Source of the DNA: Candidatus Dojkabacteria bacterium
GTDB taxonomy: Bacteria; Patescibacteriota; Dojkabacteria; GCA-002793355
Direction: 5' to 3'
Assembly (NCBI GenBank): GCA_030583825.1
Contig: CP129477.1
Location: forward strand, 510,308-574,307
Length of the DNA stretch: 64,000 nt
The notes under the pieces are model-generated. The model did not search any database. It was not told the DNA's origin and saw only the letters and a list, made by a program, of their open reading frames with translations. Below are positions 1,667-59,678 of the stretch, piece after piece (positions within the stretch are counted from its first letter, which is position 1; every line of letters starts with the position of its first letter). The position numbers were made by a program, and so were the translations under genes.

Positions 1667-2548
1667 ATGGCACTAGTGAATGAATTGGTTGTAAAATTTA
1701 TTGAATACCTCAAAAACACGGGAAAGTCGGAATCAACTCTTGTGGCCTATCGTAAAGATATCGAACAGATGCGTGACTTTCTTTTGTCAAAGGGGATACA
1801 CAATGTCGAAGAAATAAAGATTGATGATTTGAAGCCGTTCTTGGAATATCTTCGTGTCGAGAAAGGTTTTAATCTCAAAACAATCTCACGAAAAATTAAT
1901 AGCATTCGAACATTCTTTAAATTTCTTCGAGAACAGGGAGCAATTGCAGAGGACTCTGATCCTTCATTGAAATTGACCCATCCAAAAATTGAAAGTAAAC
2001 TTCCACGAGTACTTAACCGTGTTGAATATCGCGCTCTTCGTGATGCAAGCCGTGCAGATGTTCGGCTATATACAATGGTCGAAATTCTTTTGCAGACAGG
2101 TCTTCGCATTGGAGAATTACAGCGATTGCAGGTTGAAGACATTAAAGTAACTCCTCTTGGACACCGATATTTGCAAATTCAAACATTCGGCTCACACCAG
2201 AATCGCAATGTTCCTTTGAACGAAACAGCATATCAGGCAATTCAAGATTACTTGAAAGTTCGCCCAACAGCAGCAGGTACAGTAAAGAGCATCTTTCTTA
2301 CAAAAAGTGGAAATGCTATTCCTATCCGAAATATGCGATCCGCAATCAAGCGAGCATTTAGCCGTGCAGGAATCAAAAACGCAACCGTAAACGATATTCG
2401 CAATACATTTATTGCTCACCACCTTGCAAATGGCGTAAATGTTCTTACTGTCGCAAAGATTGTCGGACACAAGAGAATCTCAACAACAGAGAAATATCTC
2501 GAAATCCTCAAACCAAAAGAAGGAAGTGATAAACTGGGTGAGCTATAG
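1667..2548 (+). CDS. tyrosine site-specific recombinase, XerC/XerD family
   Basis: N-terminal SAM-like core-binding domain (LVAYRKDIEQMRDFL). C-terminal catalytic motifs: LLQTGLRIGEL (Arg I), HxxR region (IRNTFIAHHLANG) and the catalytic Tyr region (STTEKYLEI). Confidence 0.8.
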   Translation: MALVNELVVKFIEYLKNTGKSESTLVAYRKDIEQMRDFLLSKGIHNVEEIKIDDLKPFLEYLRVEKGFNLKTISRKINSIRTFFKFLREQGAIAEDSDPSLKLTHPKIESKLPRVLNRVEYRALRDASRADVRLYTMVEILLQTGLRIGELQRLQVEDIKVTPLGHRYLQIQTFGSHQNRNVPLNETAYQAIQDYLKVRPTAAGTVKSIFLTKSGNAIPIRNMRSAIKRAFSRAGIKNATVNDIRNTFIAHHLANGVNVLTVAKIVGHKRISTTEKYLEILKPKEGSDKLGEL

Positions 2549-2943
2549 TCCTTAGTTAAAGCTTTTTACGACTATAGTGGAACCGCAGTGAGGAAACCCC
2601 AGTAATAAAGATTTAATAAGTTGACGGAACCGAGCAAAAAGATAACTGACGTTATGTTTTTGTGAAGGAGGTTAGAAATAGCAACAATTTGCTATTGTGT
2701 TGCAAGGCCGGGGAGCTGTAATCCTTTTGCAAGGAGTCCTCTGCTAAACATGAGCAGCAAAATCATATTTTACGCGAATACTTTCAGATAGAGATAAGGA
2801 CTTACAACGAAGCCATTGCATTGTTTACTGTAGCCTTACAAATTTCTCTCCTGTTTCACAAAACTCACCCTCGGCAATGTCATATCAAAAGTCCATATTT
2901 CACACATAATTACGGAACGCTTTATGATATAATAACAATTATT

Positions 2944-3020
2944 GGTGAGGTAGCTCAGTTGGTTAGAGCACGGGATTCATAACCCCGAGGTCAGCGGTTC
3001 GATCCTGCTCCTCACCACCA
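2944..3020 (+). tRNA. tRNA-Met (anticodon CAT), 77 nt with encoded CCA
   Basis: Cloverleaf by eye: acceptor GGTGAGG/CCTCACC, D-arm GCTC..GAGC, anticodon loop TTCATAA, T-loop TTCGATC, 3' ACCA. 1:72 is paired (G:C), so it looks like an elongator or Ile2-type rather than a classical initiator. Confidence 0.85.
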
Positions 3021-5082: not shown

Positions 5083-7968
5083 ATGTCAGGAATTCACAAA
5101 GGTCTTTTACTTGCGATTGATGCAAACTCATTATTACACCGAGCATATCACGCGTACCCATTAACGATGGTTACTTCGGATGGAGTACCAGTAAACGCGG
5201 CATTCGGATTTACCTCGATGCTATTAGATACTTTGCTGAAGTATCGTCCAGAATATGTTTTTTGTGCGTTTGATACTCATAAGCCGACGTTTCGTCACAC
5301 AGACTATTTGGGGTACAAAATGAATCGTCCGAAAACCGATTCAGAGCTTGTTGACCAAATTCCTCTCGTTGATAATGTCTTGAATGCGTTGAATATTCCT
5401 ATTTTTCGCGTAGATGGCTACGAAGCAGATGACATTCTTGGGACAGTCGCTGCGAAAGCTGTTGCAGATGTTCATGGCCCCATTTCCAACGCTTTTATTT
5501 TAACTGGTGACCGGGATTTGTATCAGCTGGTTAATGAAAAAGTACAGGTCGTGATGCCAAAAGGATCGTTTAAAAATTTACAGGAATATGGAGAAACGCA
5601 GGTGATTGAATCAATGGGAGTTCCTCCGGTACGGATTACTGACTTGAAAGGACTTATGGGTGATGCATCGGATAATATTCCTGGAGTCAAAGGCATTGGC
5701 CCGAAAACTGCTGCAGATTTGATCACAACATTTGGTTCATTGGAAGAAATTTACCAAAATATTGAAGAGGTGGCTAAAAAGTCAAAAAGAATTGCTGAAA
5801 AACTTGCAGAAGAGCAGGAAGTCGCAGTGCTAAGTAAACAACTTGCAACGATTAAGTTGGATACTCCAGTCACATTTAAGTATGATGCCGCGTTGACGAG
5901 TGATTTTTCATTGCATAAAGCAACTGCGTTATTTACTCAGTATCAGTTTAAGTCATTGCTTCCGCGGCTGAAAAAGTTCGATGATATTGCACCAAAATTG
6001 GATGGTCAGGAACAAACAGAGACAATGGAGGATGTACAAAGTTTAACACTGAAAGAAGAAATGTCTCATTGGATTGGCCAATTGCCGGATGATTTAAGAG
6101 GTGGGGACACACTTGCCGCGCTTGATCGCTTAGACGCGGTCTTACTATCGAGTGAATCACATTCTTTTGAAAATATGTCCGGAAAAGGGCTTGGTGAGCG
6201 TGTAGAATTCCTTGGGAAAATATTGGAAGAACTACAGTCGGATGCATTTTCTCAATTTGTCATTGTGTATTACGGGCGAGCAGTGTACATAACGGATATT
6301 TCAGATGCGAGATTGTCATTAGCAGGAGGAGCAAAAATCATTTTTCATGGATTTTTTAGCTATTGGAACGAATGTGTGACTGGCCCAGAACAATCATCTT
6401 TGGACAAAAAACAACACGAAATCCTGAAAGCGCTGTTTGCTGCAGATGTTTTAGTGGATATTCCTTCTTTAACATATGCAATGGCCGCTGGACGTGGAGA
6501 TTATGATATTTCGCAAGCGGTATTACAGTATGGCATTTTACCTCAACATGTTTCCCAACAGCTTCCAATTATTGCATTGATGCAAGCAGCAAAAGCAACG
6601 GTCGGATTACCAGAATATGTGGGACTTACGCGTATTGTTGAGTTGTGGAAGCAGCGTCCTCAAAGAGGAGATATGACAATTCCTGAGTCGGTACATCTCT
6701 TTTTGGATAAACCTGCACAGTTTGGAGTTGCGCTTATGCACTTGCGCGGTATTGGAATAAATCCAGAACTCGTATTGGAATATGGGCAGTCGTTGGAAAA
6801 AGAAATTGCCACACTAGAAAAGGGCATCTTCGATGACATTGGATTCGAATTTAACATTCGTTCTCCAAAACAGCTGGGAGATATTTTATTCTCTCATTTG
6901 GGATTGCCGTCAAAGAAAAAAACAAAAACAGGCTTTTCTACAGACGATGAGGTCTTGCAAGAGCTTTTACCCGCCCACCCTGCAGTGGAGAAAGTACTCA
7001 AATACCGGCAGCTTTCCAAGCTTCTCAATACATACATTCGTCCTTTTCTCGATCTTGCCCAACGTCACAATGAGGCGACTTCTGGACAGCAATTAACATT
7101 TGGTGCCGGAAATGTCGAAAACAGCTCGGGAAATTTCTTTAGAATTCACTCTGAATTTGATCCAATGTCCACATCTTCGGGGCGCTTGTCGTCGAGCAAT
7201 CCTAACTTACAGAACCTACCGATTAAAACTCTGGAAGGAAAAATGATCCGCAAGTTCTTTGTTCCAGAAGCAGGAAATGTTCTCATTTCGATAGATTATT
7301 CGCAAATTGATCTGCGTGTAATGGCTCATATTTCCGGAGATCCAGGACTTTTGGAGGCATTTACCAAAGAACGAGATGTTCACAGAACAACCGCAGCAAA
7401 GATTTTTGGAGTTGACTACGCAGATGTAAATGACTCACAGCGACGTATTGCAAAAACCGTAAACTTCGGTCTTTTATATGGAATGTCGGCATTCGGATTG
7501 TCCAAGTCTATCGGTGTGTCAGTGAAAGAAGCGGATGCATTTATAAAAGCGTATTTCGAGTCATTTCCAAATGTTCAGAAATATATGGAAGAAACGATTG
7601 ATTTCGCCTCGCAGTATGGGTATGTTCTATCGTTATTGGGTCGCCGAAGATATATGTACGGAATTGATGCGAACAACCAGCAACGACGTCAGGCAGCACA
7701 GCGAGAGGCAATAAACATGCCGATCCAGGGTGGTTCAGATGATATTATGCGTCTGGCACTTGGACAGATATCGCTTATGGATGAAGTCCTCTCCGGCAAA
7801 GTTCGTTTGGTGTTACAGATTCATGACGAGCTTGTGTTTGAAGCTCCAGATGATGAGAAGTTCTTGAAAGAGTTTATTCCAAAACTGACGAATACAATGG
7901 AACATGTGCTTGAATTGGCAGTGCCGTTGAAGGTAGAGTATGCGGTAGGGAAAAACTTGGACATATAA
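5083..7968 (+). CDS. polA: DNA polymerase I
   Basis: N-terminal 5'-3' exonuclease/FEN domain (GDASDNIPGVKGIGPKTA helix-hairpin-helix). Pol A motifs in the C-terminal half: RRQAAQREAINMPIQGGSDDIM and QIHDELVFE. 961 aa. Confidence 0.9.
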   Translation: MSGIHKGLLLAIDANSLLHRAYHAYPLTMVTSDGVPVNAAFGFTSMLLDTLLKYRPEYVFCAFDTHKPTFRHTDYLGYKMNRPKTDSELVDQIPLVDNVLNALNIPIFRVDGYEADDILGTVAAKAVADVHGPISNAFILTGDRDLYQLVNEKVQVVMPKGSFKNLQEYGETQVIESMGVPPVRITDLKGLMGDASDNIPGVKGIGPKTAADLITTFGSLEEIYQNIEEVAKKSKRIAEKLAEEQEVAVLSKQLATIKLDTPVTFKYDAALTSDFSLHKATALFTQYQFKSLLPRLKKFDDIAPKLDGQEQTETMEDVQSLTLKEEMSHWIGQLPDDLRGGDTLAALDRLDAVLLSSESHSFENMSGKGLGERVEFLGKILEELQSDAFSQFVIVYYGRAVYITDISDARLSLAGGAKIIFHGFFSYWNECVTGPEQSSLDKKQHEILKALFAADVLVDIPSLTYAMAAGRGDYDISQAVLQYGILPQHVSQQLPIIALMQAAKATVGLPEYVGLTRIVELWKQRPQRGDMTIPESVHLFLDKPAQFGVALMHLRGIGINPELVLEYGQSLEKEIATLEKGIFDDIGFEFNIRSPKQLGDILFSHLGLPSKKKTKTGFSTDDEVLQELLPAHPAVEKVLKYRQLSKLLNTYIRPFLDLAQRHNEATSGQQLTFGAGNVENSSGNFFRIHSEFDPMSTSSGRLSSSNPNLQNLPIKTLEGKMIRKFFVPEAGNVLISIDYSQIDLRVMAHISGDPGLLEAFTKERDVHRTTAAKIFGVDYADVNDSQRRIAKTVNFGLLYGMSAFGLSKSIGVSVKEADAFIKAYFESFPNVQKYMEETIDFASQYGYVLSLLGRRRYMYGIDANNQQRRQAAQREAINMPIQGGSDDIMRLALGQISLMDEVLSGKVRLVLQIHDELVFEAPDDEKFLKEFIPKLTNTMEHVLELAVPLKVEYAVGKNLDI

Positions 7969-22728: not shown

Positions 22729-25161
22729 ATGCCAGAACACGAACCATCAGGTTCACCTCCACAGCCTACAATTTCTGAACAGGCATCCGAATATTACGCC
22801 GATGCAAAGCAATGGGCACAGGAGAAAATTGACCAAGCACAAGAGTATCTTCGCGACAGACGAGAGCAACTAAATGCCGTACTTGATAATGCAAATGAAT
22901 ATCTCCGCAATGTTCGTGGAGGTGCCGCCTACGAAGGAAATAAAGACCAGCGAGATAATGACGAACCGGGAGAAGATCGCGCGTATACCAACAAAAAGAA
23001 GGGGTTAGCGTTCGTTATTGATGGGCATAATATTCCACAAAATGTTGCGACGGACTGGTTGGAAGAAAAGCTTGAAAAGTCAGCTCGCAAAAGACGAAAG
23101 TTACCCAAAAACGGAGATGAGGCAGAAGAACAATTGCGTGCGGTTATTAATCCAGTTATTGCTAATGTTGCAAGGTTAAATGCTGAACAAGATCCTAAAG
23201 ATGAAGCGCAATTCGCAGTTGCACAAGTTGCCCGTAATGGCGAAGTTGTCGTTGCTCATACCGGAAATGTCCGCGCATATATTCGCGACAAAGAAGGAAA
23301 ACTTCGTCCAATCACAAACGATGATACAAGCATGTTGGCGTTGGTCGAGTCTCAAAATGAAAAAGATGCTCAAGAAGCAATCCGACATGCAGCGAAAGAT
23401 CTCGGCGACCTTACACCAGAACAACAAAATGCACTTTTGCAGTTATGGAAGTACTTTAATTGGAATGTGACAGAAGAAAATCGTGCGGCCCGGCAGGAAG
23501 TATTTTTACGATTTGTTCGGGGAATTGACCAATTTCGCAGTGCGAAAGATACAGAACGCCTTAGACTTCCTCGGCTGGAAGGAGTATCAGACGAGCAGAA
23601 TGAGAAAAACCAGGCGTATATACGAAAAATTAGAAACAATATAATCGCCGGAGTTAATGGAATGAATAGTAATGTTCTTAGTAGTGTTCGAGATGCTGGG
23701 GATGAAAATTTGGTACGGTACACTCGCACACGTTTGCGTGAAGGTGATGTTGAAATTGTTATTGTAACAGACGGCGTTCACAAGAATCTTACTCAGAGGG
23801 AAATATCAGGGAGACTAAATACTCTTGGAACTTCGGGACAAAGAGCAAATCGTGTGCTGTATGCATCTCGAGAAGAAAATGTTCCAGATCGTGGCAAAAG
23901 TCCAATACGTGAAGCAACCGACGACGATAAAGCAGTTGCCGTTTTGGCGATTGATCCGAATATACGGCGCATTCCAGTGAAAGAGAAGGTGAGAAAGCCA
24001 CGAAAAGAGCAGCAAAGAGTTATTAAATTAGAAACGGAACCTCAAGAAATCGAGAATAAATATGCCTATGCGATGCAGAGAGGCTTTAGTAAAGCAGAAT
24101 TGGAAGATGCGATTGCTTACAATACGGATATGCAGTTTGGTGCGGTTATGGACGGTGTTGGCGGAGGCGATGGAAAAAGCGGAGATGTAGCGAAGAATGT
24201 TGCGCATAATTTGCTGCAGAATATCAGTAGACCAGCTGAGAATCCACTCGAGGCGTATGAAATGCTTGACCGCGCACTTGACGCATCTGGTATTGCAATC
24301 GCAGACGCAAAACAAAGATTTGGAAATCATAATGTAGATACGACCTTTGCAACAGTTGTTCGTACCAACGCTGGTAGGGATGTTATTGCATGGGCCGGAG
24401 ATTCGCGCGTATATGTTCGCCGTCCAGATGGATTGCATTTGCTTACCCGCGACCATACTTTGTTATTTGCTATGGCGGAGGCTCGAAGCCAAGAAGAGTT
24501 AGACAAAAGAATATGGGCAGCAATGTCAGCAGGGATACCTGAAGGTAATAACGAAGCGTTAAATAACGCGCACGAAGACTATGCGCATATTCGACACCTC
24601 CTCATGTTTTTTAAAGCAACCCCGTATGGCGACGGAGAATTTAATTACAACCTTGAGGCAATGAATGAATTCTTCTTGCAATTGCAGGAAGTGAAAACTC
24701 CCGAAGATCTCGATAAACTACTTTTGCCACGAGGTGACCTTGCTGAACACCAACAGGCGGAGTATGTGTGGTTTTTGAATAACAAAAAATATGCCTTTGA
24801 GCTTTTGCAGGTAATTGCGAACAATGTCATTACTCATAGCGCAGCCGATGGCAGAATGGGCTACGAAGCATATGTGTACCAACCACAGGCTGACGATATT
24901 GAATACGTAATTGTCAGCGATGGTGTATCGGACAATTTGAACCGTGCCGAAATGAATGAAGTACTTGCCGTAGAGGAGCCATCTCCAAACCGAGCATTAC
25001 GGCTAATAACCGTAGCACGATCTCCACAACAGATTAGTAGGAGAAATAACAGGCTTCGCGTTAAAGATGACGATGTGGCCGTAGTTATTGTGCCAATCCA
25101 AGCGAAGGTTCCGAAAGTCCGGCGGGCTCCAGGCAACGCTTCTGTTCCTCAAGCCGCGTAA
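22729..25161 (+). CDS. tandem PP2C-like protein: N-terminal degenerate pseudo-phosphatase domain plus C-terminal canonical PP2C (PPM) Ser/Thr phosphatase domain
   Basis: C-terminal domain carries the canonical PPM motifs: AVMDGVGGGDG, AGDSRVYVRRPDGLHLLTRDHT, IVSDGVSDNL, DDDVAVVIV. The N-terminal domain has the same motif order with metal ligands lost: FVIDGHNIPQ, AHTGNVRAYIR...ITNDDT, IVTDGVHKNL. Confidence 0.7.
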   Translation: MPEHEPSGSPPQPTISEQASEYYADAKQWAQEKIDQAQEYLRDRREQLNAVLDNANEYLRNVRGGAAYEGNKDQRDNDEPGEDRAYTNKKKGLAFVIDGHNIPQNVATDWLEEKLEKSARKRRKLPKNGDEAEEQLRAVINPVIANVARLNAEQDPKDEAQFAVAQVARNGEVVVAHTGNVRAYIRDKEGKLRPITNDDTSMLALVESQNEKDAQEAIRHAAKDLGDLTPEQQNALLQLWKYFNWNVTEENRAARQEVFLRFVRGIDQFRSAKDTERLRLPRLEGVSDEQNEKNQAYIRKIRNNIIAGVNGMNSNVLSSVRDAGDENLVRYTRTRLREGDVEIVIVTDGVHKNLTQREISGRLNTLGTSGQRANRVLYASREENVPDRGKSPIREATDDDKAVAVLAIDPNIRRIPVKEKVRKPRKEQQRVIKLETEPQEIENKYAYAMQRGFSKAELEDAIAYNTDMQFGAVMDGVGGGDGKSGDVAKNVAHNLLQNISRPAENPLEAYEMLDRALDASGIAIADAKQRFGNHNVDTTFATVVRTNAGRDVIAWAGDSRVYVRRPDGLHLLTRDHTLLFAMAEARSQEELDKRIWAAMSAGIPEGNNEALNNAHEDYAHIRHLLMFFKATPYGDGEFNYNLEAMNEFFLQLQEVKTPEDLDKLLLPRGDLAEHQQAEYVWFLNNKKYAFELLQVIANNVITHSAADGRMGYEAYVYQPQADDIEYVIVSDGVSDNLNRAEMNEVLAVEEPSPNRALRLITVARSPQQISRRNNRLRVKDDDVAVVIVPIQAKVPKVRRAPGNASVPQAA

Positions 25162-26334: not shown

Positions 26335-27648
26335 TTAGATGAACGTAACTGCTGTTCCTTTTTTGTTTCCACGGCCGGTTCGTCCAATACGGTGGACATA
26401 GTCTTCGTAAGAACCTGGCTTGTCGTAGTTGATAACGTGAGTGACATCTTTAATGTCGAGTCCACGTGCGGCAACGTCGGTAGCAATTAATACTCGGATT
26501 TTGTTGTCTCTAAAGAGTTTCAACGCAAACAATCGCTTGCCCTGAGGTTTATCTCCGTGAATTGTTTCTGCCGTAACTTGCTGACGTTCCAATGCTCCTC
26601 GCAAATCTTCTGTGCCACGCTTTGTTTTTACAAAGATAAGAACTTTCTCGAATTCAGGCTTTTTCAACATTTCTACGAGAGTTTCAATTTTCTTAAAGGA
26701 TTGAACATGTACAGTTTCCTGCGTGACATTTGCAGCAGTTTCGCGTGTTTTTACGGAAATCTCGACTGGATCCTTCAAGAACGTATCTGCCAACTTCTTA
26801 ATTGGCCCTGGCATCGTTGCAGAGAAGAAAAGAGACTGGCGCTGTTCAGGAAGTTTGCTCAAAATAAAGCTGATATCTTCGCTGAAACCCATATCGAACA
26901 TGCGGTCAACTTCGTCCAAAATGACTGTGGTGAATCCCGAAAGATTCAAAATCTTTCTTTCGTAAAGGTCTTTTATTCGGCCTGGAGTTCCAATCACAAT
27001 CTGTGGATGACGTCGAAGCATTTGAATCTGACGTCCAATTGGTGTTCCACCGATACAAAGTGCTGCTGACATATGAATCCCCTGAGCAAATTCTGTAAAT
27101 TCTTTCATGATTTGGTCTGCAAGCTCTCGAACTGGAACAAGAATAATGGCCTGCTCTCGTGGGTTTTGATACAGTTTATTCATCAGCGGAAGCAAAAATG
27201 CTGCTGTTTTTCCTGTACCTGTATTTGCTAAACCAACGACGTCACGTCCTTCTAAAACCGCTGGAATTGCTTGATCCTGAATTGGTGTAGGCTGTGCGTA
27301 TTGTCGGCGAATAATGTTTTTTTCGAGGGGAACAACGAATCCAAAGTCTTTAAATGCGTGTTTTGCAGTGTATTCGACTGCAGGATTATCAATTGCATCC
27401 TGTTGTGCTCGGCGAATGAATGATGAAATATCAACGGAACCTCCGCCACCACCACGTCGGCCGCCTCGGCCTCCAAAGCGTGAGCGTCCACCGGATCCGC
27501 CAAAACTGTTAAATCTTCTACCGCCAAATCGTGATCCACCGGAGCGGTCTCCGTCAGAAGAAAATGGTCTTCTGTTTCCATAATTCCGTCCACTGCGTGA
27601 GCTATTCCCATGCCCAGATTGTCGTGACGGGTATCGCTTGTCGTCCAT
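26335..27648 (-). CDS. DEAD-box ATP-dependent RNA helicase with N-terminal RGG/FGG low-complexity region
   Basis: Q motif (F..PTPIQ), motif I (GLANTGTGKTAAF), Ia (PVRELA), II as DEVD (ILDEVDRM), III (SAT), V (LIATDVAARGLDI), VI (HRIGRTGRG). The first ~75 aa are RGG/GGR repeats. Confidence 0.9.
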   Translation of the reverse strand: MDDKRYPSRQSGHGNSSRSGRNYGNRRPFSSDGDRSGGSRFGGRRFNSFGGSGGRSRFGGRGGRRGGGGGSVDISSFIRRAQQDAIDNPAVEYTAKHAFKDFGFVVPLEKNIIRRQYAQPTPIQDQAIPAVLEGRDVVGLANTGTGKTAAFLLPLMNKLYQNPREQAIILVPVRELADQIMKEFTEFAQGIHMSAALCIGGTPIGRQIQMLRRHPQIVIGTPGRIKDLYERKILNLSGFTTVILDEVDRMFDMGFSEDISFILSKLPEQRQSLFFSATMPGPIKKLADTFLKDPVEISVKTRETAANVTQETVHVQSFKKIETLVEMLKKPEFEKVLIFVKTKRGTEDLRGALERQQVTAETIHGDKPQGKRLFALKLFRDNKIRVLIATDVAARGLDIKDVTHVINYDKPGSYEDYVHRIGRTGRGNKKGTAVTFI

Positions 27649-27984
27649 GAGAACTAAAAGTCATCTAATATATCTCGCGAAAAACCCCAATCACAATTGG
27701 TAGGATGGGATGCTTCGCACTGGCAATATTTACCAGCAAGTCTCTAATTGAGATGTGCCTCTTCTAAAACGATCTTTTTTGGGAAAAAGAAAGAGAAAAA
27801 TATTGCATACAGAATGTATTATACCATATCTCTGTAGTAAATTCGATTTATCCTTTTTAATTTGCTTAGAAAGGGAAGGGCCGCGGATACTTCGGTCATC
27901 GTACAATGTTTGCCATGGACTTATAGTGTGATATAATTACCCAACCCTTTAAGGGCAAAAATCCGAAGAAAGTGTATAGATCCA

Positions 27985-28566
27985 ATGGAGAAAAAGCACA
28001 TGCAAACAAATATCAGTCCGTTTACGCTGGAAACCGAAGATGGCGAAATCAAAGCTATGCGTCTTCGCGTGAATACCGCACTTCTGGTCATCGAAGGCGA
28101 TGGTTCAATGACGCTGGGCTTGAATAACGCTGAACCTGTCGCACTCGACTTGTCCAACATTTCGCGTATTCTTCGTATCCGCGATGGGCAGACGGAAGAT
28201 GGTAAACAGGTCGTTGAAGCCGCAATTCTGCGCCGCGATAACCTGCGTAACTTCATGCGTCTGGATAGCGATGTCACCGAAGCCGTTCTTGGCAATGCGA
28301 TGGAAACCCTCCGCCGCGAGCTTGAAATTCTGGAAGATGCGGACTTAGGCACGCTTTTGACCGTATATACAGCGATGGCGAATGCTCGCACCTTCAAGAA
28401 AGTCAAAGAGGATGGTGAAGACGCACAGCAACGGGCAGAAGCTCTTCAGGCGGAACTCGATACGGCGAATGAAACCATTACCACCCTGCGCGAAGCCAAT
28501 GGTGAACTGACCACCCGTGCCGAAACTGCCGAAGACGAACTCAATCGCATTCGTGCAGGGTGGTAA
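27985..28566 (+). CDS. hypothetical protein in GC-rich island (C-terminal coiled coil)
   Basis: 193-aa ORF in a ~52% GC segment with CTG/CGC-rich, enterobacterial-like codon usage. C-terminal heptad-like region (AEALQAELDTANETITTLREANGELTTRAETAEDELNRI). Its stop overlaps the next ATG as TAATG. Confidence 0.5.
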   Translation: MEKKHMQTNISPFTLETEDGEIKAMRLRVNTALLVIEGDGSMTLGLNNAEPVALDLSNISRILRIRDGQTEDGKQVVEAAILRRDNLRNFMRLDSDVTEAVLGNAMETLRRELEILEDADLGTLLTVYTAMANARTFKKVKEDGEDAQQRAEALQAELDTANETITTLREANGELTTRAETAEDELNRIRAGW

Positions 28567-28679
28567 TGGGAATCACAGTGATAATGGTCATCTGGGCGAT
28601 GAAACGGCTCTTGAACGGCTTTTTGAACTGGGCGGCGAAGAAATTCCCACCGATGAAGAAGGCGTTCTCGTCAATGTGA
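28566..28679 (+). CDS. 37-aa hydrophobic peptide (MGITVIMVIWAMKRLLNGFLNWAAKKFPPMKKAFSSM), translationally coupled
   Basis: ATG overlaps the upstream stop (TAATG). One predicted TM helix followed by a basic tail. Same GC-rich composition as the upstream gene. Too short to appear in the 60-aa ORF track. Confidence 0.35.
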   Translation: MGITVIMVIWAMKRLLNGFLNWAAKKFPPMKKAFSSM

Positions 28680-28981
28680 CAGGATAAAAACCCTGACCTT
28701 TGCGTTCGATTCAATCAAAGTTTGCAAGTGCAGACGGCCGAGATTATCTATGAGGAAAAATAACCCCCCTATGCAATCCTCTTCGATCTCGACCGTCAGC
28801 ACCCTTTTTTTATTTCTCCCATGTCCTCGTAACTATCTATTTCTCTCTATAAAAAATATCCACCAATTTTGTACTCATTCATATGCCAGCCTGTTCTCAT
28901 TAAAAAAGTATTGAATGAAAATGAGTAAATCTTTCTATTTGTGCACCTGCAAGTAAAACTGTTCACAGTTTCATTTTCCTC

Positions 28982-30184
28982 ATGTACAATGCCTCTATGG
29001 AGTTACCAAAATCTGCCCGAGAGGTAATAACCTCCCAACTTTTCACTGTTTCTGTCATAGTTCTTACAAGTATTGCATTTGGAATCATTTTTCTTGTGCT
29101 TGTGAATGTTCTTCAGCAGGAAGGAAAAGTCACAATTAACGAAGATGAGGAAGAGACGGTAGAAACTGAGAGACCTGAATCACAAAGCCCGGCACGAACA
29201 CAGTATGCGTTTATGCTTACAGAAACTCCGGCAAATCCAACAGTTACGCAAGTTCAGCAGGAAGGAAATAAGTGCCAGCCTGTAGCATTTGACCCTCGCG
29301 CGACACAAATTACAGCAAAAAGTCAGAAGTTTGCAATCCCAGAAAAATATTACGAAGTTCTGTCAGGGAACGACATATTTACCTTTACAAAAAACGGGTT
29401 TGAAGTAGAAGGCTCGGCAAAGCCCACAGTTATCAGCCCGTTAAGCGCAGATGTATATTCGTTTTTCTGTGAAAATGGTGAGATTTCTTATGTCATCGAA
29501 ATAAACAGGCTCAATACACGTGGCGTTTTTCTCAGCAGAGCAGTACTTTTAACGCAAGTAGTCGCTTACGAATTTATTGATAACTCTACATTATATGTGG
29601 TGCAACTCGTTCAAAACGGCCAGTTATGGGAAAAACAAGCACAAATAATTTCTTTGCCAGGATTACAGCGTAAAAATATTCCTGTTTCTCTCGCATGCGT
29701 GGGTGGTTCGGCAATGATATTAAATAACGAGTTAGTTTTAGCAAATAAGCAGACAGAGGGCCGACCTCCCGAGCCTGGAAAATACCCAACATCGCTTTGT
29801 TTTGTTACAAAAGAAGGAACTGTCCGTGCAATGGCTACTACTTCACTTTCTTGGGACGGCGAAGATCAAAAAACTCCAGTATTTCAATTGTTTTCGACTC
29901 CAGCTCAACCTGGAGCAATCGCAATTTACGACACGTTTTTTACAGGCCAAAATGCCGGTTGTCACCTATATGTGCAATCTTTGTCCAACGGATTGGAACA
30001 AAGGCAGTTTTCATTGGATAAAATAGCGCTGGGAAGCACTCAGAAGCACTGTCCACGTATTCAATTTGATGCTTCTACGCTTTCATTTACATCGGAGGCT
30101 TTGAAATATAGGGTAGAGTCATACAACCAGGTTTTGAGGCAATTACAGTGGTCAGAGTGGCATTCTGCCGGCATTATAAAGTAA
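28982..30184 (+). CDS. hypothetical membrane-anchored (signal-anchor) extracytoplasmic protein
   Basis: 400-aa ORF. N-terminal TM (LFTVSVIVLTSIAFGIIFLVLVNVL), then a soluble domain with several Cys. No recognised motif. Confidence 0.5.
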   Translation: MYNASMELPKSAREVITSQLFTVSVIVLTSIAFGIIFLVLVNVLQQEGKVTINEDEEETVETERPESQSPARTQYAFMLTETPANPTVTQVQQEGNKCQPVAFDPRATQITAKSQKFAIPEKYYEVLSGNDIFTFTKNGFEVEGSAKPTVISPLSADVYSFFCENGEISYVIEINRLNTRGVFLSRAVLLTQVVAYEFIDNSTLYVVQLVQNGQLWEKQAQIISLPGLQRKNIPVSLACVGGSAMILNNELVLANKQTEGRPPEPGKYPTSLCFVTKEGTVRAMATTSLSWDGEDQKTPVFQLFSTPAQPGAIAIYDTFFTGQNAGCHLYVQSLSNGLEQRQFSLDKIALGSTQKHCPRIQFDASTLSFTSEALKYRVESYNQVLRQLQWSEWHSAGIIK

Positions 30185-46980: not shown

Positions 46981-48834
46981 ATGGCATATAAATATGAAAT
47001 CGAACAAAAAGCACAGCAATTACGATTGCGTGTATTAGTCGCAATTTATGTGCTGTTTGTTATTTCTGCCGCTATTATTGGTGTATCAGTACGATTGCAG
47101 CAAATTCGAAACATTCAGCCATCACGACCTGGTGCAGATACTGGAGGACAAACCGGTTACACATTGGCATCAGACCCAACATATAATCCTCGAAACTTAA
47201 GTGCATTTGCATATTGTGCAGTTGTTGACGCAAATAATAACGAAACAGGTGAATTTATTCCTCTTGGAGGAACACGTTTCTTCTTTAGACAAATGGGAAA
47301 ACGAGATGTTGGTCAAATTCGTAATGAACCACTCGCAAACCTTTGTAGTAATCTTCCTGCAGGCTGTGGACTTAATGGTCAAACAGTTGCACAATGTAGT
47401 TCAGGATTAACAAGTTGTCCTTCTTCCGATGGTATCGCAGGAATTATTTGTCCAGGCGGAGATGAGCAGAGAATCGCTCCTGCAAACGGATTAGTCGTAT
47501 GGCCAGGCCAGGACACAATTCTTGGAGACTTGCGATGGGACGATACTGATGTTGAAGTAACTCTTGATATGAACTCTGGGCCAATTGATCAAGGAGAGGT
47601 TACATACAACTCGACGGTATATACAATTAATAAATCTGCTGCAGTTATTAACTCACCAAACTTTACTCCGCATCTTGATTCATTACTTCCAATTTACCGA
47701 TGGCAGTGTCAGAATCTTTGTACCGGAGGTCAGTGTGCTCAGGGTGGAAATACATATCAACCAGCACCATGTACATTCTCTGGAAACCAGTTTAACTGTC
47801 CGGAATATAAATACTTGACCTATCAGGGAGCTCCATTTGCAAACGACGAATCAGATGACTCATTCTTATATCGTAGGTACGCAGCTGCTCGTGATCCAGC
47901 AAACCCAACTAAAGTTCGTGTAGGTTTTGGATATGAGGGAATCGTAGACTCAAGCTACCCAACAATTACAAATACAGATGCCGCATCATTAGTTGCATTT
48001 CGAGGCAATCTCGTAAAATTCCGATTCACCTGTTTGGCATCAGCAGTAACAACTCCGACACCAACGCCTACCCCAACTCCAAGTGATAGTCCAACTCCAA
48101 CACCAACCCCGTCAGGATCAGTTACCCCAACGCCAACACCGACTCCTACAGAGTTTCTTTTGACAGCACAGAAAACTGGCCCAGCATGTGTTGAGCGAGT
48201 TGAGCCAAACAATCACGCAACATTCACAATTACAGTAACGAATACAGGAACAGGAAACGCAACAATTAATAGAGTAGAAGATAGTCTTCCACAGGGATTC
48301 ACCTATCAAGCAGGTACAACAAATGTAAATGGTTCTAATGTTCCAGATACCTATGTAACAACACAAATGAGTGGAAACTCACAGCTTATTCGATTCGAAC
48401 GACCATCAGGAGATGGTGGCCCATGGGTTCTTGCACCAGGAGCATCACTGATTATTCGATTTACTTCTATCGCAGGAGATGATGCTATTACAGGTACAAA
48501 TACAAACCAAGTTGTTATCGTTCCAGAAGGTCACGATGCAATTGATGACATTCAGTTCCAGTTTGAAGTTGAGCAAACATGTGTTCCGGAAACAGGAATC
48601 CTTGATGAGCCGGTCTTTGTGATTGGTGCAAGTGCAGTCTTAATCCTCATTGGACTGTATGTTATGTACAATCCACGTGCAGCAAAGTTTGCAGAGCAGT
48701 GGCACTCAGCAATGACTGATACAAAGAAAAGAATTGACGCAACCGCTAAATCTCTTGAGAGAAAAGCAAACCGACGCGTCCGATTTGAAGAAAAGGTTTC
48801 CAAAGAGCTTTCAGGAAAACGCAAAAAATCATAA
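46981..48834 (+). CDS. large cell-surface protein: signal anchor, Cys-rich domain, (TP)n linker, DUF11-like repeat domain, C-terminal VPETG plus TM anchor
   Basis: N-terminal TM. Cys-rich region (CSNLPAGCGLNGQTVAQCSSGLTSCP). Linker TPTPTPTPTPSDSPTPTPTPSGSVTPTPTPTP. A TFTITVTNTGTGNATINRVEDSLPQGFTY beta-domain. Then CVPETG followed by a hydrophobic helix and a basic tail. Confidence 0.6.
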   Translation: MAYKYEIEQKAQQLRLRVLVAIYVLFVISAAIIGVSVRLQQIRNIQPSRPGADTGGQTGYTLASDPTYNPRNLSAFAYCAVVDANNNETGEFIPLGGTRFFFRQMGKRDVGQIRNEPLANLCSNLPAGCGLNGQTVAQCSSGLTSCPSSDGIAGIICPGGDEQRIAPANGLVVWPGQDTILGDLRWDDTDVEVTLDMNSGPIDQGEVTYNSTVYTINKSAAVINSPNFTPHLDSLLPIYRWQCQNLCTGGQCAQGGNTYQPAPCTFSGNQFNCPEYKYLTYQGAPFANDESDDSFLYRRYAAARDPANPTKVRVGFGYEGIVDSSYPTITNTDAASLVAFRGNLVKFRFTCLASAVTTPTPTPTPTPSDSPTPTPTPSGSVTPTPTPTPTEFLLTAQKTGPACVERVEPNNHATFTITVTNTGTGNATINRVEDSLPQGFTYQAGTTNVNGSNVPDTYVTTQMSGNSQLIRFERPSGDGGPWVLAPGASLIIRFTSIAGDDAITGTNTNQVVIVPEGHDAIDDIQFQFEVEQTCVPETGILDEPVFVIGASAVLILIGLYVMYNPRAAKFAEQWHSAMTDTKKRIDATAKSLERKANRRVRFEEKVSKELSGKRKKS

Positions 48835-51552: not shown

Positions 51553-52920
51553 GTGAAAAGATTACCATTACGACTTATTCTAGGAATTACTGCATGTATT
51601 TGCGGCTATTATGCTGCTGAGTCATTAGCTATTTCTAATAAGAATACCTTCGTTCTACTAGGGGCGTGTTTTTGCCTATTCCTACTGATCTTTAGCATCT
51701 GGAGAGAACAGCATAGCCCTGTGATATTCTTGCGGTTTTCGCGTAAAAATAGCAGACAAAGAATAAAGATAATAATGATTTGTGTAACTATTATTCTTGG
51801 TATATATGCGGGAATAGTAGTTAGATTAAGACTTCACTCAGGTTGTGAGTTCATTCCCGGTAATATGGTATTTGTTGCTTCAGTGTATACATCTGGCATC
51901 GAGGTCAAACCTATAGGTTGTAGTTCTAAATTACGGGCATTCGCATATTGTAACGAAGGAAAATGCCCACGTATTGGAGTTCTTGCTACTTTGCAGAAGG
52001 TGCAAGCAAGAGAAAACTCTTTGTCCGTTAGCGTGAGCAATCTTAAAGTACCAGAGTGGAATAGTGAGCCTTGGATGTTTGCAAGGTATGTGGGGAATTC
52101 TCTTAAAGAAGAGTATTATTCGCTAATTTTGGAGTCCGAGGGGCCAGATACGGCAAATATTATGGTGTCGCTTCTGTTTGGAGGTACAGCTCTTCCGGAA
52201 TGGTTTAAAAAAGGAATGGAGGCTTTAGGCTTACAGCATATTACTGCTATTTCGGGTGCTAATATTGCACTGCTTATGAGTTTTATGGAAGGAGTATTAC
52301 GTAAGTTACACAAAGTTCTGATTAATAGTATTATGATTATAGTTTCTCTTGCTCTATTAACTATTACAGGGCCACTTCCTCCTTTATTAAGAGCATTCTT
52401 TACCATTATTATAGTATCTATTTTTACCCTTTGGGGCCGAAAAGTAGAAGGTTTATCTTATGTGACACTTCCTGCATTATTGGGTATCTTTTTCTTTCCT
52501 GAGCTAAGTGAATCAAAGAGCTATTTTCTTGCAGTTGCAGCAATTTTTGGTGTAATGGTCATCGCACCTTCTATAGAAAGGAAGTTCGTAAAACATATCA
52601 AGAGAGTTTTTCCCAGAATAAGCAAAAAGTTTATTGATTTTTGTAGAGTAATTATTTTACAACTTGGAGTGGCCATAAGCATACAACCTTTACTATGGTT
52701 TTATTTTGGAAGAAATTCTCCCATTGGAATAGTTAGTTCAATCATACTTGATTCAACTTTCACGGTACTTCTTACAGTAGGGTACATTGCCTTTATAGCT
52801 TCTAGTACTTTTAGTGAAGTAACGAGGCTTTCGTTTCCCGCTGTGAAGCTTATCCTTACCGTCATCAAAATAATGTTTCACATTTTAGAAAATATAACCA
52901 TAAGTTATCAACATGTCTAG
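51553..52920 (+). CDS. ComEC/Rec2-family competence membrane protein (core competence domain only)
   Basis: Polytopic membrane protein with the ComEC signature region LLFGGTALPEWFKKGMEALGLQHITAISGANIALL. No metallo-beta-lactamase domain present. Confidence 0.65.
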   Translation: MKRLPLRLILGITACICGYYAAESLAISNKNTFVLLGACFCLFLLIFSIWREQHSPVIFLRFSRKNSRQRIKIIMICVTIILGIYAGIVVRLRLHSGCEFIPGNMVFVASVYTSGIEVKPIGCSSKLRAFAYCNEGKCPRIGVLATLQKVQARENSLSVSVSNLKVPEWNSEPWMFARYVGNSLKEEYYSLILESEGPDTANIMVSLLFGGTALPEWFKKGMEALGLQHITAISGANIALLMSFMEGVLRKLHKVLINSIMIIVSLALLTITGPLPPLLRAFFTIIIVSIFTLWGRKVEGLSYVTLPALLGIFFFPELSESKSYFLAVAAIFGVMVIAPSIERKFVKHIKRVFPRISKKFIDFCRVIILQLGVAISIQPLLWFYFGRNSPIGIVSSIILDSTFTVLLTVGYIAFIASSTFSEVTRLSFPAVKLILTVIKIMFHILENITISYQHV

Positions 52921-54655
52921 AGATATGTTTCACAAATTAATTAAAAATAAGCAAACGTGGAAAAAGTGTTTATATCTTTTAGGGGTAGTAGCTTTCTTAT
53001 GTTTCACACTTTCTCAAGATATAACAGTAAAAGCAGACTCATTTTTTCCTTCAGGAGATGCACGGTATTGTTTACTAGTTCCTACTGTAGGGTTTTACTT
53101 ACAAAGTACACCTATTCCGGAGTTTTTAGAGTATGATGGCGATAAAGTCACGGGATATTCATATAGTTGGGTAACTTCGCATGGAATTACAGATGTCGCT
53201 GATATTCGAGCTGGGCACTTACATAGATTCAGAGACATTGCCAGCTATGTTGCTGGGCCACCAGGAACTCAAATAGGTGTTGCCGCTTGGTTTTACAATG
53301 GAAGTGGACACTCAGTTGATATTTCTGAGTCTCGACTATATCTTTCCTCTCCCGAAAGTGGAGATCTCACAAGAAATACAACAGTTCTTCCTCAAAGTGG
53401 AGTAACTCAAACACTATATTTTGGGAATCAGTTTTCTCGGACAGGGGCATATACAACATTTCCTGTGCCAAGAATTCCTTCGTACTCAGGAAGTCATCCT
53501 CCAGGAATGAAAATTGGTACTCTCACTATAAAACAGCCTGTAGTGATAGGCTCTGTCGTTGCAGCCTGTTACCCAACAAACGATGGACAAATAATTATGG
53601 AGAAAAATATTATGGTTAGAAATGATTCCATGTACTCATTACAAAATGTCCAAGTAGGAAATCAGTCTATTGAACTTGCTCCGCGTCAAATATCTGTAGT
53701 GACAATTACTGAAACTCAACCTCAAAATGCATCAAATACGTATGTGGGGAGTACGGTAAAGGTGTCTGACCAAAATGAACACCTCGAATGTGCAGCAACG
53801 GCTGCCGCAGATGGCGATGCTCTTATAGCTTCGGCGAGACCATTTTTTGTAAACAGAAATGATTCAGCAGACCTGAGTTGGTTTCGATTTCAACCTGCAC
53901 CTGCAGCAGAAGGCGGAGGTGTTACTCTCTGTGTGAGGCAGATTGGTTATACACAGGAGACTATTGCGCCAAGCTGCTCATTTGAGCTCAAACAGGAGAT
54001 ATCCGTAGAGGAGACTAACTTTTGTGAGCAGGGTGGTAAGGGGGCTCGCATATCTATAAAGATCCATAATACGGGAGGTTTCAGTGATAAATCATTCATT
54101 TTTCTGCGAATTAGAAAAGAGCATAGCCATAAAATAGCCAAAGTAGTGGGCTACTCAGAACGGGAGGAAGATAATTCTTGGATAGTTTATAAAGCAGAAA
54201 TTCCGTCAATAACTCACGGTGAAAGTAGGTCGCACATATTTACTATTGAATGGAGCGAACTAGCAGAAGACAATACTCCCATTTCAGTTCTTTATAAAGA
54301 GCAGGAAATAGAAAAAATAATTACAGTTGAAAAATGCGTACTGTCTCAGACTCCGGGGAATATAACAAGCATTAGCCACGCACCTATACCAATAACTGTT
54401 AGCCAGGAAGAATCACTCTGGAATAAAACTAAAAATGAAAACTTTTTTGTGTTATCAAAATTGGCGAATGCAGGGATTTCGTTTGAGCTGGAGAATTCCT
54501 ACTTATTTGGAGCAGTCATTGCAATAATTTCTTGCCTTATTTTTAGAATTGTTTCAAAAGGATATGTGAGAGGGCGATTTAAAAAGACAGAAGAGAGTAT
54601 TTCTTTTTCGCCTGCAGATAATGGACAACAAAGTATTGTCTCGATTGAAAATTGA
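52913..54655 (+). CDS. hypothetical secreted/membrane-anchored protein (N-terminal signal, C-terminal TM)
   Basis: 580-aa ORF overlapping the ComEC-like stop by 8 nt (operonic). N-terminal hydrophobic segment and a C-terminal TM (FGAVIAIISCLIFRIV). No recognised domain. Confidence 0.5.
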   Translation: MSRDMFHKLIKNKQTWKKCLYLLGVVAFLCFTLSQDITVKADSFFPSGDARYCLLVPTVGFYLQSTPIPEFLEYDGDKVTGYSYSWVTSHGITDVADIRAGHLHRFRDIASYVAGPPGTQIGVAAWFYNGSGHSVDISESRLYLSSPESGDLTRNTTVLPQSGVTQTLYFGNQFSRTGAYTTFPVPRIPSYSGSHPPGMKIGTLTIKQPVVIGSVVAACYPTNDGQIIMEKNIMVRNDSMYSLQNVQVGNQSIELAPRQISVVTITETQPQNASNTYVGSTVKVSDQNEHLECAATAAADGDALIASARPFFVNRNDSADLSWFRFQPAPAAEGGGVTLCVRQIGYTQETIAPSCSFELKQEISVEETNFCEQGGKGARISIKIHNTGGFSDKSFIFLRIRKEHSHKIAKVVGYSEREEDNSWIVYKAEIPSITHGESRSHIFTIEWSELAEDNTPISVLYKEQEIEKIITVEKCVLSQTPGNITSISHAPIPITVSQEESLWNKTKNENFFVLSKLANAGISFELENSYLFGAVIAIISCLIFRIVSKGYVRGRFKKTEESISFSPADNGQQSIVSIEN

Positions 54656-56223: not shown

Positions 56224-57187
56224 CGTTTACTCCAGTTGCTGCTTCGAACCCCTTAAACTGTGGAGCACGGTTTGCTTCAATAATGACGGGGCCTTTTGAA
56301 GGCATCATAATGTCAACGCCGATAATTTCTGACTTCTGCAATTTCACGACATCAACGGCCATTTTCTTTATTTCCTCTGAAATCTCGACTGGATATGCAT
56401 CTGCACCTTGAGCGACATTTCCTTTCCACTGGCCAGTTTGAGGTTCTCGTCGCATTGCTCCAAGAACTTTATCGCCGACAACAAATACGCGGATATCACC
56501 TCTGTAGTCAATAACCTCTTGAAACATACACTCTTTGACTTTATGACCTTCGTATCGGAAGAATTCTTCAATTTCTTGTAGTGACGAAAACTTGAATACA
56601 CCTTTTCCTTTTGAACTTTCCGTTACCTTTACAATAATTGGGTACGAAAGGTGTGACAACATCTGCCTCATCATCGGAAGAGACACGACTGCGAACGATT
56701 TTGGATAGGGAAATCCAGTGCTAGAGGCTTTGTAGAAAGTTCCCAGCTTTGTCTTGTAGTACATCTCTGTGCCAATTTTTTCATCAACGACAATTTTGTC
56801 ATGCTTGAGCATGTAATTTGCAATAATCGTCGCCCACTCGAGAGTTTTGGCAATTTCACGGAAGATAATAACGTCAAAATAGCGTAAATCATACATTCCA
56901 GATACGACAGTTTCTTTCTTGCCAAGAAGAGAAGAAGTCACCTTTTTAGGAGATAATGATTCATCAGGAATAATTTTAATAGTTTGCACACCTTCAAAGT
57001 TTGCAGGATCGCTCATCTGTTCGTCTTTTGTCGGTGGGGTAAAGTACACACCAAATTGCGAGAAAAAGTTCGTTATAACGATATTTTTCTTTGAGAGATA
57101 GACAATCTCGTGGCCATTTTTTAACCCTTCAACAACGATTCTATCTGCTTCGTAATATGGCTTTAATCCAATAACTGCGATTTTCAT
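56153..57187 (-). CDS. RimK-type ATP-grasp ligase (alpha-L-glutamate ligase family)
   Basis: RimK-like N-terminus (MKIAVIGLKP..GHEIVYL). ATP-grasp core: IIVKVTESSKGKGVFKF, DIRVFVVGDKVLGAMRRE..GQWKGNVAQGA, IIGVDIMMPSKGPVIIEANRAPQFKGFEAATGVNVAGEII. Confidence 0.75.
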   Translation of the reverse strand: MKIAVIGLKPYYEADRIVVEGLKNGHEIVYLSKKNIVITNFFSQFGVYFTPPTKDEQMSDPANFEGVQTIKIIPDESLSPKKVTSSLLGKKETVVSGMYDLRYFDVIIFREIAKTLEWATIIANYMLKHDKIVVDEKIGTEMYYKTKLGTFYKASSTGFPYPKSFAVVSLPMMRQMLSHLSYPIIVKVTESSKGKGVFKFSSLQEIEEFFRYEGHKVKECMFQEVIDYRGDIRVFVVGDKVLGAMRREPQTGQWKGNVAQGADAYPVEISEEIKKMAVDVVKLQKSEIIGVDIMMPSKGPVIIEANRAPQFKGFEAATGVNVAGEIISYIENKYARLSKTKNEG

Positions 57188-57208
57188 GTATAAAGTATAC
57201 CTTAAATC

Positions 57209-58123: not shown

Positions 58124-58161
58124 TTTTGTTGACTAGATTAAGTTATCTCTTAGTATTTCCG

Positions 58162-59676: not shown

Positions 59677-59678
59677 AT

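Follow-up and report, generated by a model that had tools for sequence, protein, structure and literature searches.

Within the 64,000-nt stretch of a Candidatus Dojkabacteria chromosome analysed here over its whole length (contig CP129477.1, positions 510,308 to 574,307; 'the window'), a GC-rich patch lies between a DEAD-box helicase gene and a gene encoding a membrane-anchored orphan protein of 400 amino acids (aa). A first-pass annotation had read this patch as a two-gene module, with a 193-aa protein coupled to a 37-aa peptide through an overlapping TAATG. As judged by sequence comparison, the patch is a real protein-coding gene of this Candidate Phyla Radiation (CPR) bacterium with homologues only within the species, and the locus is best read as a single monocistronic unit with a predicted promoter and terminator of its own. 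Overall, an atypical orphan accessory gene such as this one is nothing extraordinary in kind, but two of its details are unusual: the codon set shared by both of its alleles, and a frameshift of the quasipalindrome type.

The orphan gene, its product and its second allele

The 193-aa protein predicted from the NCBI start is QY314_02610 (100% identity to the protein of the NCBI metagenome-assembled genome, MAG). A further homologue (P0003; 227 aa, 65% amino acid identity) is encoded on a 5.2-kb contig from SRR23814899, referred to below as locus L001, where the gene order is that of the window: helicase, gene, 400-aa protein, 460-aa protein. The flanks of the two loci are 95–100% identical, whereas the gene lies in a hyperdivergent block (Table 1) that has sharp edges within the transcribed region and contains short nucleotide-identical islands. 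By the method of Nei and Gojobori, the synonymous (dS) and nonsynonymous (dN) divergence between the window and L001 is 0.99 and 0.29 for this gene (dN/dS ~0.3), as compared to 0.07 and 0 for the helicase, 0.21 and 0.013 for the 400-aa protein and 0.14 and 0.010 for the 460-aa protein, i.e. the dS of the gene is 5–14 times that of its neighbours.

The differences between the alleles have the pattern of a coding sequence. They number 57, 48 and 103 at codon positions 1, 2 and 3, respectively; the frame starting at ATG 28000 is the only one of the six without stops and has the lowest ratio of nonsynonymous to synonymous differences (pN/pS); and all but one of the indels are multiples of three. 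Together, the 3-periodic differences, the open frame and the low pN/pS argue for a protein-coding gene under purifying selection that is represented by two old alleles. The same clear 3-periodicity led us to reject a structured non-coding RNA in place of the gene, and an Rfam scan of 27000–29500 yielded no match. We also rejected as a gene the antisense open reading frame (ORF) of 161 aa at 27921–28406 (−), which contains stop-containing codons in the two-allele alignment; this shadow ORF is open because the sense strand avoids the codons TTA, CTA and TCA.

Deeply diverged alleles between near-identical flanks are a feature of certain loci in recombining bacterial populations, such as those encoding pherotypes or surface antigens. 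The locus studied here resembles such hyperdivergent loci in having two alleles at a dS of ~1 between flanks at a dS of 0.07–0.2, with sharp edges and a dN/dS of 0.3. It differs from them in that two alleles are sampled, both with atypical codon usage, and in that the protein is acidic and cytoplasmic, with neither a signal peptide nor a transmembrane (TM) segment. As the divergent block includes pieces of the untranslated regions (UTRs; the 3' UTR is variable between alleles), it implies that Dojkabacteria strains exchanged it among themselves, and not that it was imported time and again from elsewhere.

The more likely start appears to be ATG 28000 rather than the NCBI start, since it is preceded at 9 nt by GGAG and is conserved in L001 (MSTNISPFT), from which ATG 27985 is absent. 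Transcription is predicted to start near 27944, downstream of a sigma-70-type promoter of which the −35 element reads TTGCTA in L001. The terminator-like hairpin was missed by a scan for consensus terminators because its loop exceeds 8 nt.

The product is acidic (isoelectric point, pI, ~4.4) with a maximum KD19 of 0.81, and is predicted to be soluble and cytoplasmic. An AlphaFold2 (AF2) model built from a two-sequence alignment (predicted local distance difference test, pLDDT, 64) has four short strands at residues 8–36, helices, a long helix at 112–185 and a short tail helix. The long C-terminal helix supports the earlier suggestion that the protein ends in a coiled coil, and the model would be consistent with a small N-terminal beta region, a coiled-coil helix of ~70 residues, a Gly/Asn linker and an acidic tail carrying a LERLFxLGG helix. 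A Foldseek search of this model against the PDB returned nothing at E <= 0.001, and sequence searches of Pfam, PHROGs, PADLOC, NCBIfam and the PDB returned just weak coiled-coil matches (SMC/JetC, scaffold, spanin, Lpp and tail-needle proteins), none near a curated cut-off. If a function is to be proposed, an oligomeric coiled-coil adaptor acting in a strain-specific conflict or interaction (phage exclusion, defence or contact with a partner) is a tentative guess that we hold weakly.

The two alleles were the only members of the family recovered by an exhaustive profile search of all 1.84 billion representatives of ~15 billion proteins, and likewise by a search among 5.8e9 clusters. No match was found in GTDB genomes (by peptide pattern and flank DNA), in JGI metagenomes (by flank DNA and a degenerate 14-aa motif) or in IMG/VR (by profile and motif). 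A distant relative, L010/L011, is syntenic (helicase 84%, 460-aa protein 75% and 400-aa protein 55% identical), and its slot between the helicase and the next conserved gene (L011, 7758–10000) holds unrelated orphans of 218 and 81 aa with host-like codons. The window shares with L011 only 26335–27754, 27783–27851 and 28962–29144, and 27852–28961, promoter and terminator included, has no counterpart there. In the still more distant L017 the helicase is followed by a 238-nt spacer (6091–6328) and then by the next large gene, i.e. the slot is without a gene. Given the unrelated orphans in L011 and the empty slot in L017, the unit appears to be specific to one species-level lineage and to occupy a slot whose content varies among relatives. 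The L011 slot additionally has a 77-aa antisense ORF, and a further orphan of 190 aa lies in L011 between the 393-aa and 456-aa genes; homology of the gene to the L011 slot orphans or to this 190-aa neighbour was tried and rejected.

Table 1. Positions of the features at the orphan-gene locus and of three neighbouring genes, in window coordinates
Feature	Position	Strand	Remarks
Sigma-70-type promoter (predicted)	27910..27937	+	TTGCCA-16 nt-TATAAT, extended -10 TG, 11/12 match; in strain-conserved AT-rich flank
Hyperdivergent GC-rich block	27978..28732	.	58-79% nt identity to L001; spans ribosome-binding site region, ORF and ~45 nt of 3' UTR
Ribosome-binding site GGAG	27987..27990	+	9 nt before ATG 28000; AAGGA at this site in L001
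Orphan protein coding sequence	28000..28566	+	188 aa, MQTNISPFT...RIRAGW*; NCBI start ATG 27985 (193 aa)
5' arm of 20-nt inverted repeat	28475..28494	.	CCATTACCACCCTGCGCGAA; in conserved coding block TITTLRE
3' arm of inverted repeat	28550..28569	.	TTCGTGCAGGGTGGTAATGG; holds the +1-nt frameshift, the TAA stop (28564-28566) and TAATG
Acidic C-terminal tail remnant	28562..28687	+	41 codons + stop, +1 frame relative to the 188-aa ORF; GNGNHSDNGHLGDETALERLFELGGEEIPTDEEGVLVNVTG*
37-aa ORF	28566..28679	+	ATG overlaps the stop of the upstream ORF (TAATG); judged not a gene
Terminator-like hairpin (predicted)	28728..28811	+	Hairpin 28728-28802, CC, T7 run 28805-28811; -31.5 kcal/mol, z -3.4; in strain-conserved flank
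DEAD-box helicase	26335-27648	-	Gly/Arg-rich N-terminus
400-aa protein	28982-30184		Downstream of the gene; N-terminal membrane anchor; without family match
810-aa protein	22729-25161		Two PP2C phosphatase-like halves

A proposed templated frameshift and the 37-aa reading frame

The ORF of the L001 allele passes the site of the window's TAA and continues as ...RIRGAINGNGHVDTDDASLERLFQLGGTELPREGDEETIEEPVPANVTG to a stop that the two alleles share (NVTG). The window retains a corresponding acidic tail, which reaches the same stop in a third frame that is neither that of the 188-aa protein nor that of the 37-aa ORF, and which is collinear with residues 184–227 of the L001 protein. This tail is conserved like the body of the protein, with 25 of 38 aligned positions identical (the shared stop included) as compared to 65% for the body; its indels are of 12, 3 and 18 nt, and its frame is without stops.

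The shift out of frame sits inside the 3' arm of an inverted repeat. While the arms are complementary at 19 of 20 positions in the window allele, the best inverted repeat of the L001 allele is 10 nt long, and a 20-nt repeat was reached in 0 of 300 dinucleotide shuffles, the maximum being 16. As RNA, the window region folds at −46.9 kcal/mol (z −5.6), against a z of +0.2 for its L001 equivalent. Where L001 reads TTCGCG|GGGCGAT|TAATGG (6+7+6), the window reads TTCGTG|CAGGGTGG|TAATGG (6+8+6), and the 8-nt centre CAGGGTGG is the exact complement of the centre of the 5' arm, CCACCCTG; in the L001 arm just the 6+6 matching ends are complementary.

A clustered, templated change that perfects a repeat is the signature of template switching at a quasipalindrome, a mechanism that is established (PMC7202029), and if the L001 allele stands for the ancestor, the window carries this signature. 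A template switch would have replaced 7 nt by the 8-nt complement of the nearby arm, giving the 19/20 repeat; the extra base would then have shifted the frame by +1, exposed a premature TAA and cost the window strain its 41-residue tail, with the 37-aa ORF as a by-product. In common with the described quasipalindrome-associated mutations (PMC7202029), an imperfect repeat (6+6 in L001) has become a near-perfect one through a templated change that adds one base and shifts the frame; unlike them, the case presented here is read from natural polymorphism, with a diverged allele as proxy for the ancestor. The event was probably recent, since the tail is still intact, and in the strain that five runs sampled it has become fixed. 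In this sense, a known mutational mechanism would have been caught in an environmental population.

Could the shift instead be used? Programmed +1 recoding at GCA GGG U GGU would yield a full-length protein of ~228 aa beside the 188-aa form, and would fit the intact, stop-free tail frame with its body-like conservation and its in-frame indels, the presence of a tRNA-Gly(CCC) gene that makes a slip from GGG to GGU conceivable, and the G-rich Shine-Dalgarno-like run immediately upstream. We nevertheless consider it improbable: the L001 allele is a single unshifted open frame; there is no canonical pair of slippery codon and stop, the codon before the TAA being UGG, which is poor for +1 re-pairing; the shift lies inside the 3' arm of the hairpin and not upstream of the hairpin; and the inverted repeat is a sufficient mutational explanation. 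The combination that marks prfB-type programmed frameshifts (a conserved shift, a slippery codon, a slow or stop codon and an upstream Shine-Dalgarno-like element) was not found here.

The 37-aa ORF is judged, from the comparison of the two alleles, to be an out-of-frame shadow of the acidic tail that a one-base frameshift would have created. The first-pass annotation was correct that the ORF is physically present and that its ATG overlaps the upstream stop, a TAATG that could allow termination and reinitiation; what did not hold is that it forms a second gene, given that it is unconserved and in the wrong frame relative to the tail. In the L001 allele, the only other one, the equivalent frame reads MATVM*, stopping after 5 codons before meeting a second stop, and the main ORF runs on to NVTG* in a different frame. 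The substitutions, too, are those expected of the tail frame, where pN/pS is 0.58 and stops are absent; in the 37-aa frame, which they do not fit, pN/pS is 0.93 and 2 codons contain stops.

A translationally coupled module that pairs the coiled-coil protein with a peptide acting as small membrane toxin, lysis peptide or regulator is therefore very improbable in our estimation, even though the peptide does have a basic pI (11.4) and a mild hydrophobicity (grand average of hydropathy, GRAVY, 0.52). This character is that of an acidic, GAN-rich tail misread by one base, which turns it into Lys, Met and hydrophobic residues. The ORF shares its shortness, hydrophobic start, basic end and overlap with an upstream stop with type I toxins, holin-like peptides and small membrane regulators, but is set apart from them by its lack of conservation, its frame and its hydrophobic run, which spans ~11 residues (G2–M12, followed by KR) and is thus too short for a membrane-spanning helix of about 18–20 residues. 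No antisense RNA was found for the ORF, and the peptide has no match in Pfam or NCBIfam and no tblastn match in phages (INPHARED) or plasmids (PLSDB). Finally, NCBI numbers this gene 02610 and the 460-aa protein 02620, and between these two locus tags only the 400-aa gene can be accommodated, with none at the 37-aa ORF. The toxin or holin and the toxin/regulator pair of the first-pass annotation are thus unsupported, and the case is a reminder that a toxin pair read by hand may be artefactual: one frameshift in an acid-rich, GC-rich gene suffices to generate a plausible hydrophobic and basic mini-ORF. What remains is a protein family without relatives among ~15 billion predicted proteins, in a CPR bacterium, with a precise E. 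coli-type codon signature and two deeply diverged alleles in near-identical flanks.

Codon usage and the origin of the gene

The patch at 27985–28679 has a GC content of 0.515 (0.519 for 27985–28566), as compared to 0.33–0.37 in its immediate flanks. Of all 695-nt windows of the 64-kb stretch (mean 0.405, standard deviation, SD, 0.025) it is the maximum, at ~+4.5 SD, so the GC-rich island originally noted against AT-rich flanks persists in a sliding-window profile that is far from uniform. The gene itself has a GC content of 0.522 and a GC content at third codon positions (GC3) of 0.519, whereas the 44 other ORFs of the window are at 0.405±0.019 (maximum 0.449) and 0.346±0.036 (maximum 0.417), respectively.

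The difference extends to the choice of codons. The gene prefers CTG, ACC, GGC/GGT and CGC/CGT, and encodes Glu almost only with GAA (53 of 55 Glu codons). CTG is used at 38% as compared to 8% in the host; CGC and CGT together reach 94%, AGA, AGG and CGA being absent from the Arg codons, while the host uses these three for 53%; and GGA and ATA are nearly absent. The host prefers precisely those A-ending codons that the gene avoids. We expressed this as a codon score, the per-codon log-likelihood difference between a host model and an E. coli model (host minus E. coli, the latter with a codon table from 40 annotated K-12 coding sequences). The score is +0.25 for the 44 window ORFs (range 0.14 to 0.39), −0.23 for the 40 E. 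coli sequences (SD 0.10) and −0.19 to −0.22 for the two alleles of the gene, which therefore fall inside the E. coli range and outside all 44 window ORFs (z ~−8). The earlier description of the codon usage as enterobacterial-like, of the CTG/CGC/GCG type, is thereby confirmed.

The rise in GC3 is specific to certain codons: in four- and six-fold boxes GC3 is 0.58–0.64 in the gene, 0.32 in the host and 0.62 in E. coli, whereas in two-fold boxes it is 0.23–0.37 in the gene against 0.35 in the host. This argues against plain GC mutation bias or GC-biased gene conversion, both of which we rejected. In L001 the GC content of the allele is as high (0.53) and its codon pattern is the same, with synonymous changes between the alleles staying within the preferred set, for example CGC to CGT or GGC to GGT and the reverse.

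On balance, we favour the reading that this is one lineage-restricted, monocistronic accessory orphan gene, truncated by a frameshift, which is of lateral origin and whose alleles have been exchanged by recombination. A lateral origin is probable, as the most economical reading of the codon signature. Both the atypical composition and codon usage for the host genome and the absence from the same position in distant relatives are as expected of a horizontally acquired gene, and the proposal of a horizontally acquired segment was in this respect reasonable. The gene would have entered the lineage laterally from an unsampled donor; with a strong promoter and a terminator hairpin of its own, it would now be transcribed independently, much as a moron is; and homologous recombination over short tracts, by way of the constrained flanks, would have moved its alleles from strain to strain. 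In activated sludge, CPR bacteria have been reported to exchange genes with both hosts and phages (PMC10031880). Morons are independent, laterally spread transcription units (PMC3594210), and the gene resembles phage morons and other lateral ORFan accessory genes in having a transcription unit of its own and a composition unlike that of its neighbours, in lying between genes that lack it in relatives, and in being without homologues, dispensable and strain-variable. It is unlike phage morons in its CPR chromosome without prophage context, in being GC-richer than the host, in having no known donor, and in that its predicted promoter and terminator are host-like.

Several observations weigh against this reading. 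The collections searched hold no donor homologue, and composition carries the case for a lateral origin by itself. Both alleles retain non-host codons at a dS of ~1, which is not what one would predict for a gene simply acquired and then ameliorating in a genome of 40% GC. Promoter and terminator lie in conserved, host-like flanks outside the foreign-looking block, which is not what is seen in a classic moron. No mobility gene and no flanking or boundary repeat marks an insertion at the locus, nor was any other mobile-element context (integrase, att repeats, phage genes) found. In addition, the ancestral state at the frameshift site is read from an allele that is 35% diverged, and the function is a guess from a poor AF2 model, a null Foldseek search and family matches that are all weak and to coiled coils.

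The main rival, which we regard as unlikely, is that the gene is native and very highly expressed, its codon pattern being due to translational selection. A near-consensus promoter with an extended −10 element, codon preferences that both alleles retain at a dS of ~1 through changes within the preferred set, and the near-exclusive GAA would all suit such a gene. Translational selection usually shifts two-fold NNY boxes to C, and here these boxes are unshifted, with GAT, AAT and ATT still preferred. Furthermore, the 44 other ORFs lie close together in a cluster of host type, those for FtsH, LeuRS, a class Ib Trp/Tyr-tRNA synthetase and PolA among them; the host prefers the A-ending codons that the gene avoids; and in small, slow-growing CPR genomes codon selection is expected to be weak. 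The distinction matters: if donor-derived, the signature would be one of the rare cases in which composition still shows that a gene has passed into a Dojkabacteria genome, perhaps from a phage or a host, and if selected, it would represent an unusual gene-specific tuning of codons in a tiny genome.

We give little credence to the locus being a diversification site, at which the ORF is replaced from silent cassettes, as in antigenic variation, or is subject to local hypermutation (by a diversity-generating retroelement, DGR, or associated with transcription). The sharply bounded divergent block inside the transcribed region, its nucleotide-identical islands and a dS 5–14 times that of the neighbours are what such a site might leave. 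However, the 64-kb window holds no second copy or fragment, protein searches returned no paralogue, only two alleles are seen, and the combination of saturated synonymous sites and a dN/dS of 0.3 is as expected of old alleles kept under purifying selection. A DGR target in particular was rejected: no reverse-transcriptase domain was found among the window ORFs that were scanned or carried precomputed Pfam matches, the region is not repeated in the window, and over ~750 nt all six substitution types occur, without restriction to adenines.

Slightly more remote still is the notion that the non-host codon set is actively maintained, uncoupling translation of this strongly promoted gene from the main (UNN-anticodon) tRNA pool and thus acting as a codon-usage-based switch. 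What suggests it is the avoidance of A-ending four-fold codons and of AGA, AGG, CGA and ATA, together with the near-exclusive GAA, in both alleles at a dS of ~1. Such a switch could allow expression when tRNAs are depleted or cleaved (phage attack, stress) or in another cellular context, for instance the host of this episymbiont. The locus would then be an expression site with an ORF cassette exchanged among strains.

Finally, the possibility that the patch is an assembly chimera or an enterobacterial or vector contamination, as E. coli-like codon usage and GC content might suggest, appears negligible: blastn (word size 11) of the patch against 5,426 complete E. coli genomes (20,395 records) and tblastn against 50,697 phage records (INPHARED) and 72,556 plasmid records (PLSDB) gave no match, the sequence with its junctions recurs at 100% identity in Logan assemblies of SRR24881069, DRR779146, SRR24948970, SRR24948971 and SRR29109021, so that the junctions are reproduced in independent assemblies of five runs and in the NCBI MAG, and a second, divergent allele lies within the same Dojkabacteria flanks. 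At the level of sequence data, this refutes the chimera or contaminant contemplated in the first-pass annotation, and its prophage- or plasmid-derived proteobacterial module found no proteobacterial, phage or plasmid donor in the collections searched.

Neighbouring genes and other features of the window

The immediate neighbours of the gene are housekeeping or orphan genes, and the gene content of the window is typical of a small CPR genome: besides the aminoacyl-tRNA synthetases, PolA and FtsH mentioned above, it includes membrane-anchored and P-loop orphans, transketolase-like E1 subunits, ABC ATPases and a PIF1 helicase. The DEAD-box helicase carries a low-complexity, Gly/Arg-rich (RGG-like) N-terminal extension of ~85 residues (27400–27648, −), which produces the second local GC peak of the window (0.545). 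The intergenic region between the helicase and the orphan gene (27649–27909) has ~1 difference per 260 nt between the two strains, despite a helicase dS of 0.07, and its part at 27783–27851 is 80% identical even to L011. It probably serves the helicase as a long 5' leader or as regulatory sequence; folding of its minus strand gave no strong structure (z −1.5).

On the other side, the 400-aa protein evolves fast, the 55% identity to its L011 counterpart comparing with 84% for the helicase, and it has a single other homologue cluster in the database. The L011 counterpart of the 810-aa double-PP2C protein is 661 aa long and adjoins a 1008-aa protein with an FHA domain.

Further away, a 617-aa DUF11-domain protein (46981–48834), probably a surface protein, combines the window's lowest GC3 (0.25) with a high GC at second codon positions (0.49), and in composition stands at the opposite end from the GC-rich gene. 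Two RimK-like ATP-grasp proteins, an ATPgrasp_ST and Zn_protease fusion and a 7TM_transglut membrane protein are clustered at 56153–60320 (−) in what looks like a conserved operon of the peptide-ligase type. A tyrosine recombinase of 293 aa (XerC/D-like or an integrase) lies 400 nt upstream of a tRNA-Met gene (2944–3020), the two spanning 1667–3020, and a further tRNA-Met is found at 118–190. The convergent long ORFs at 52913–54655 (+) and 54499–56223 (−) overlap by ~157 nt, and at least one of their ends is probably mis-set in the mechanical ORF list.

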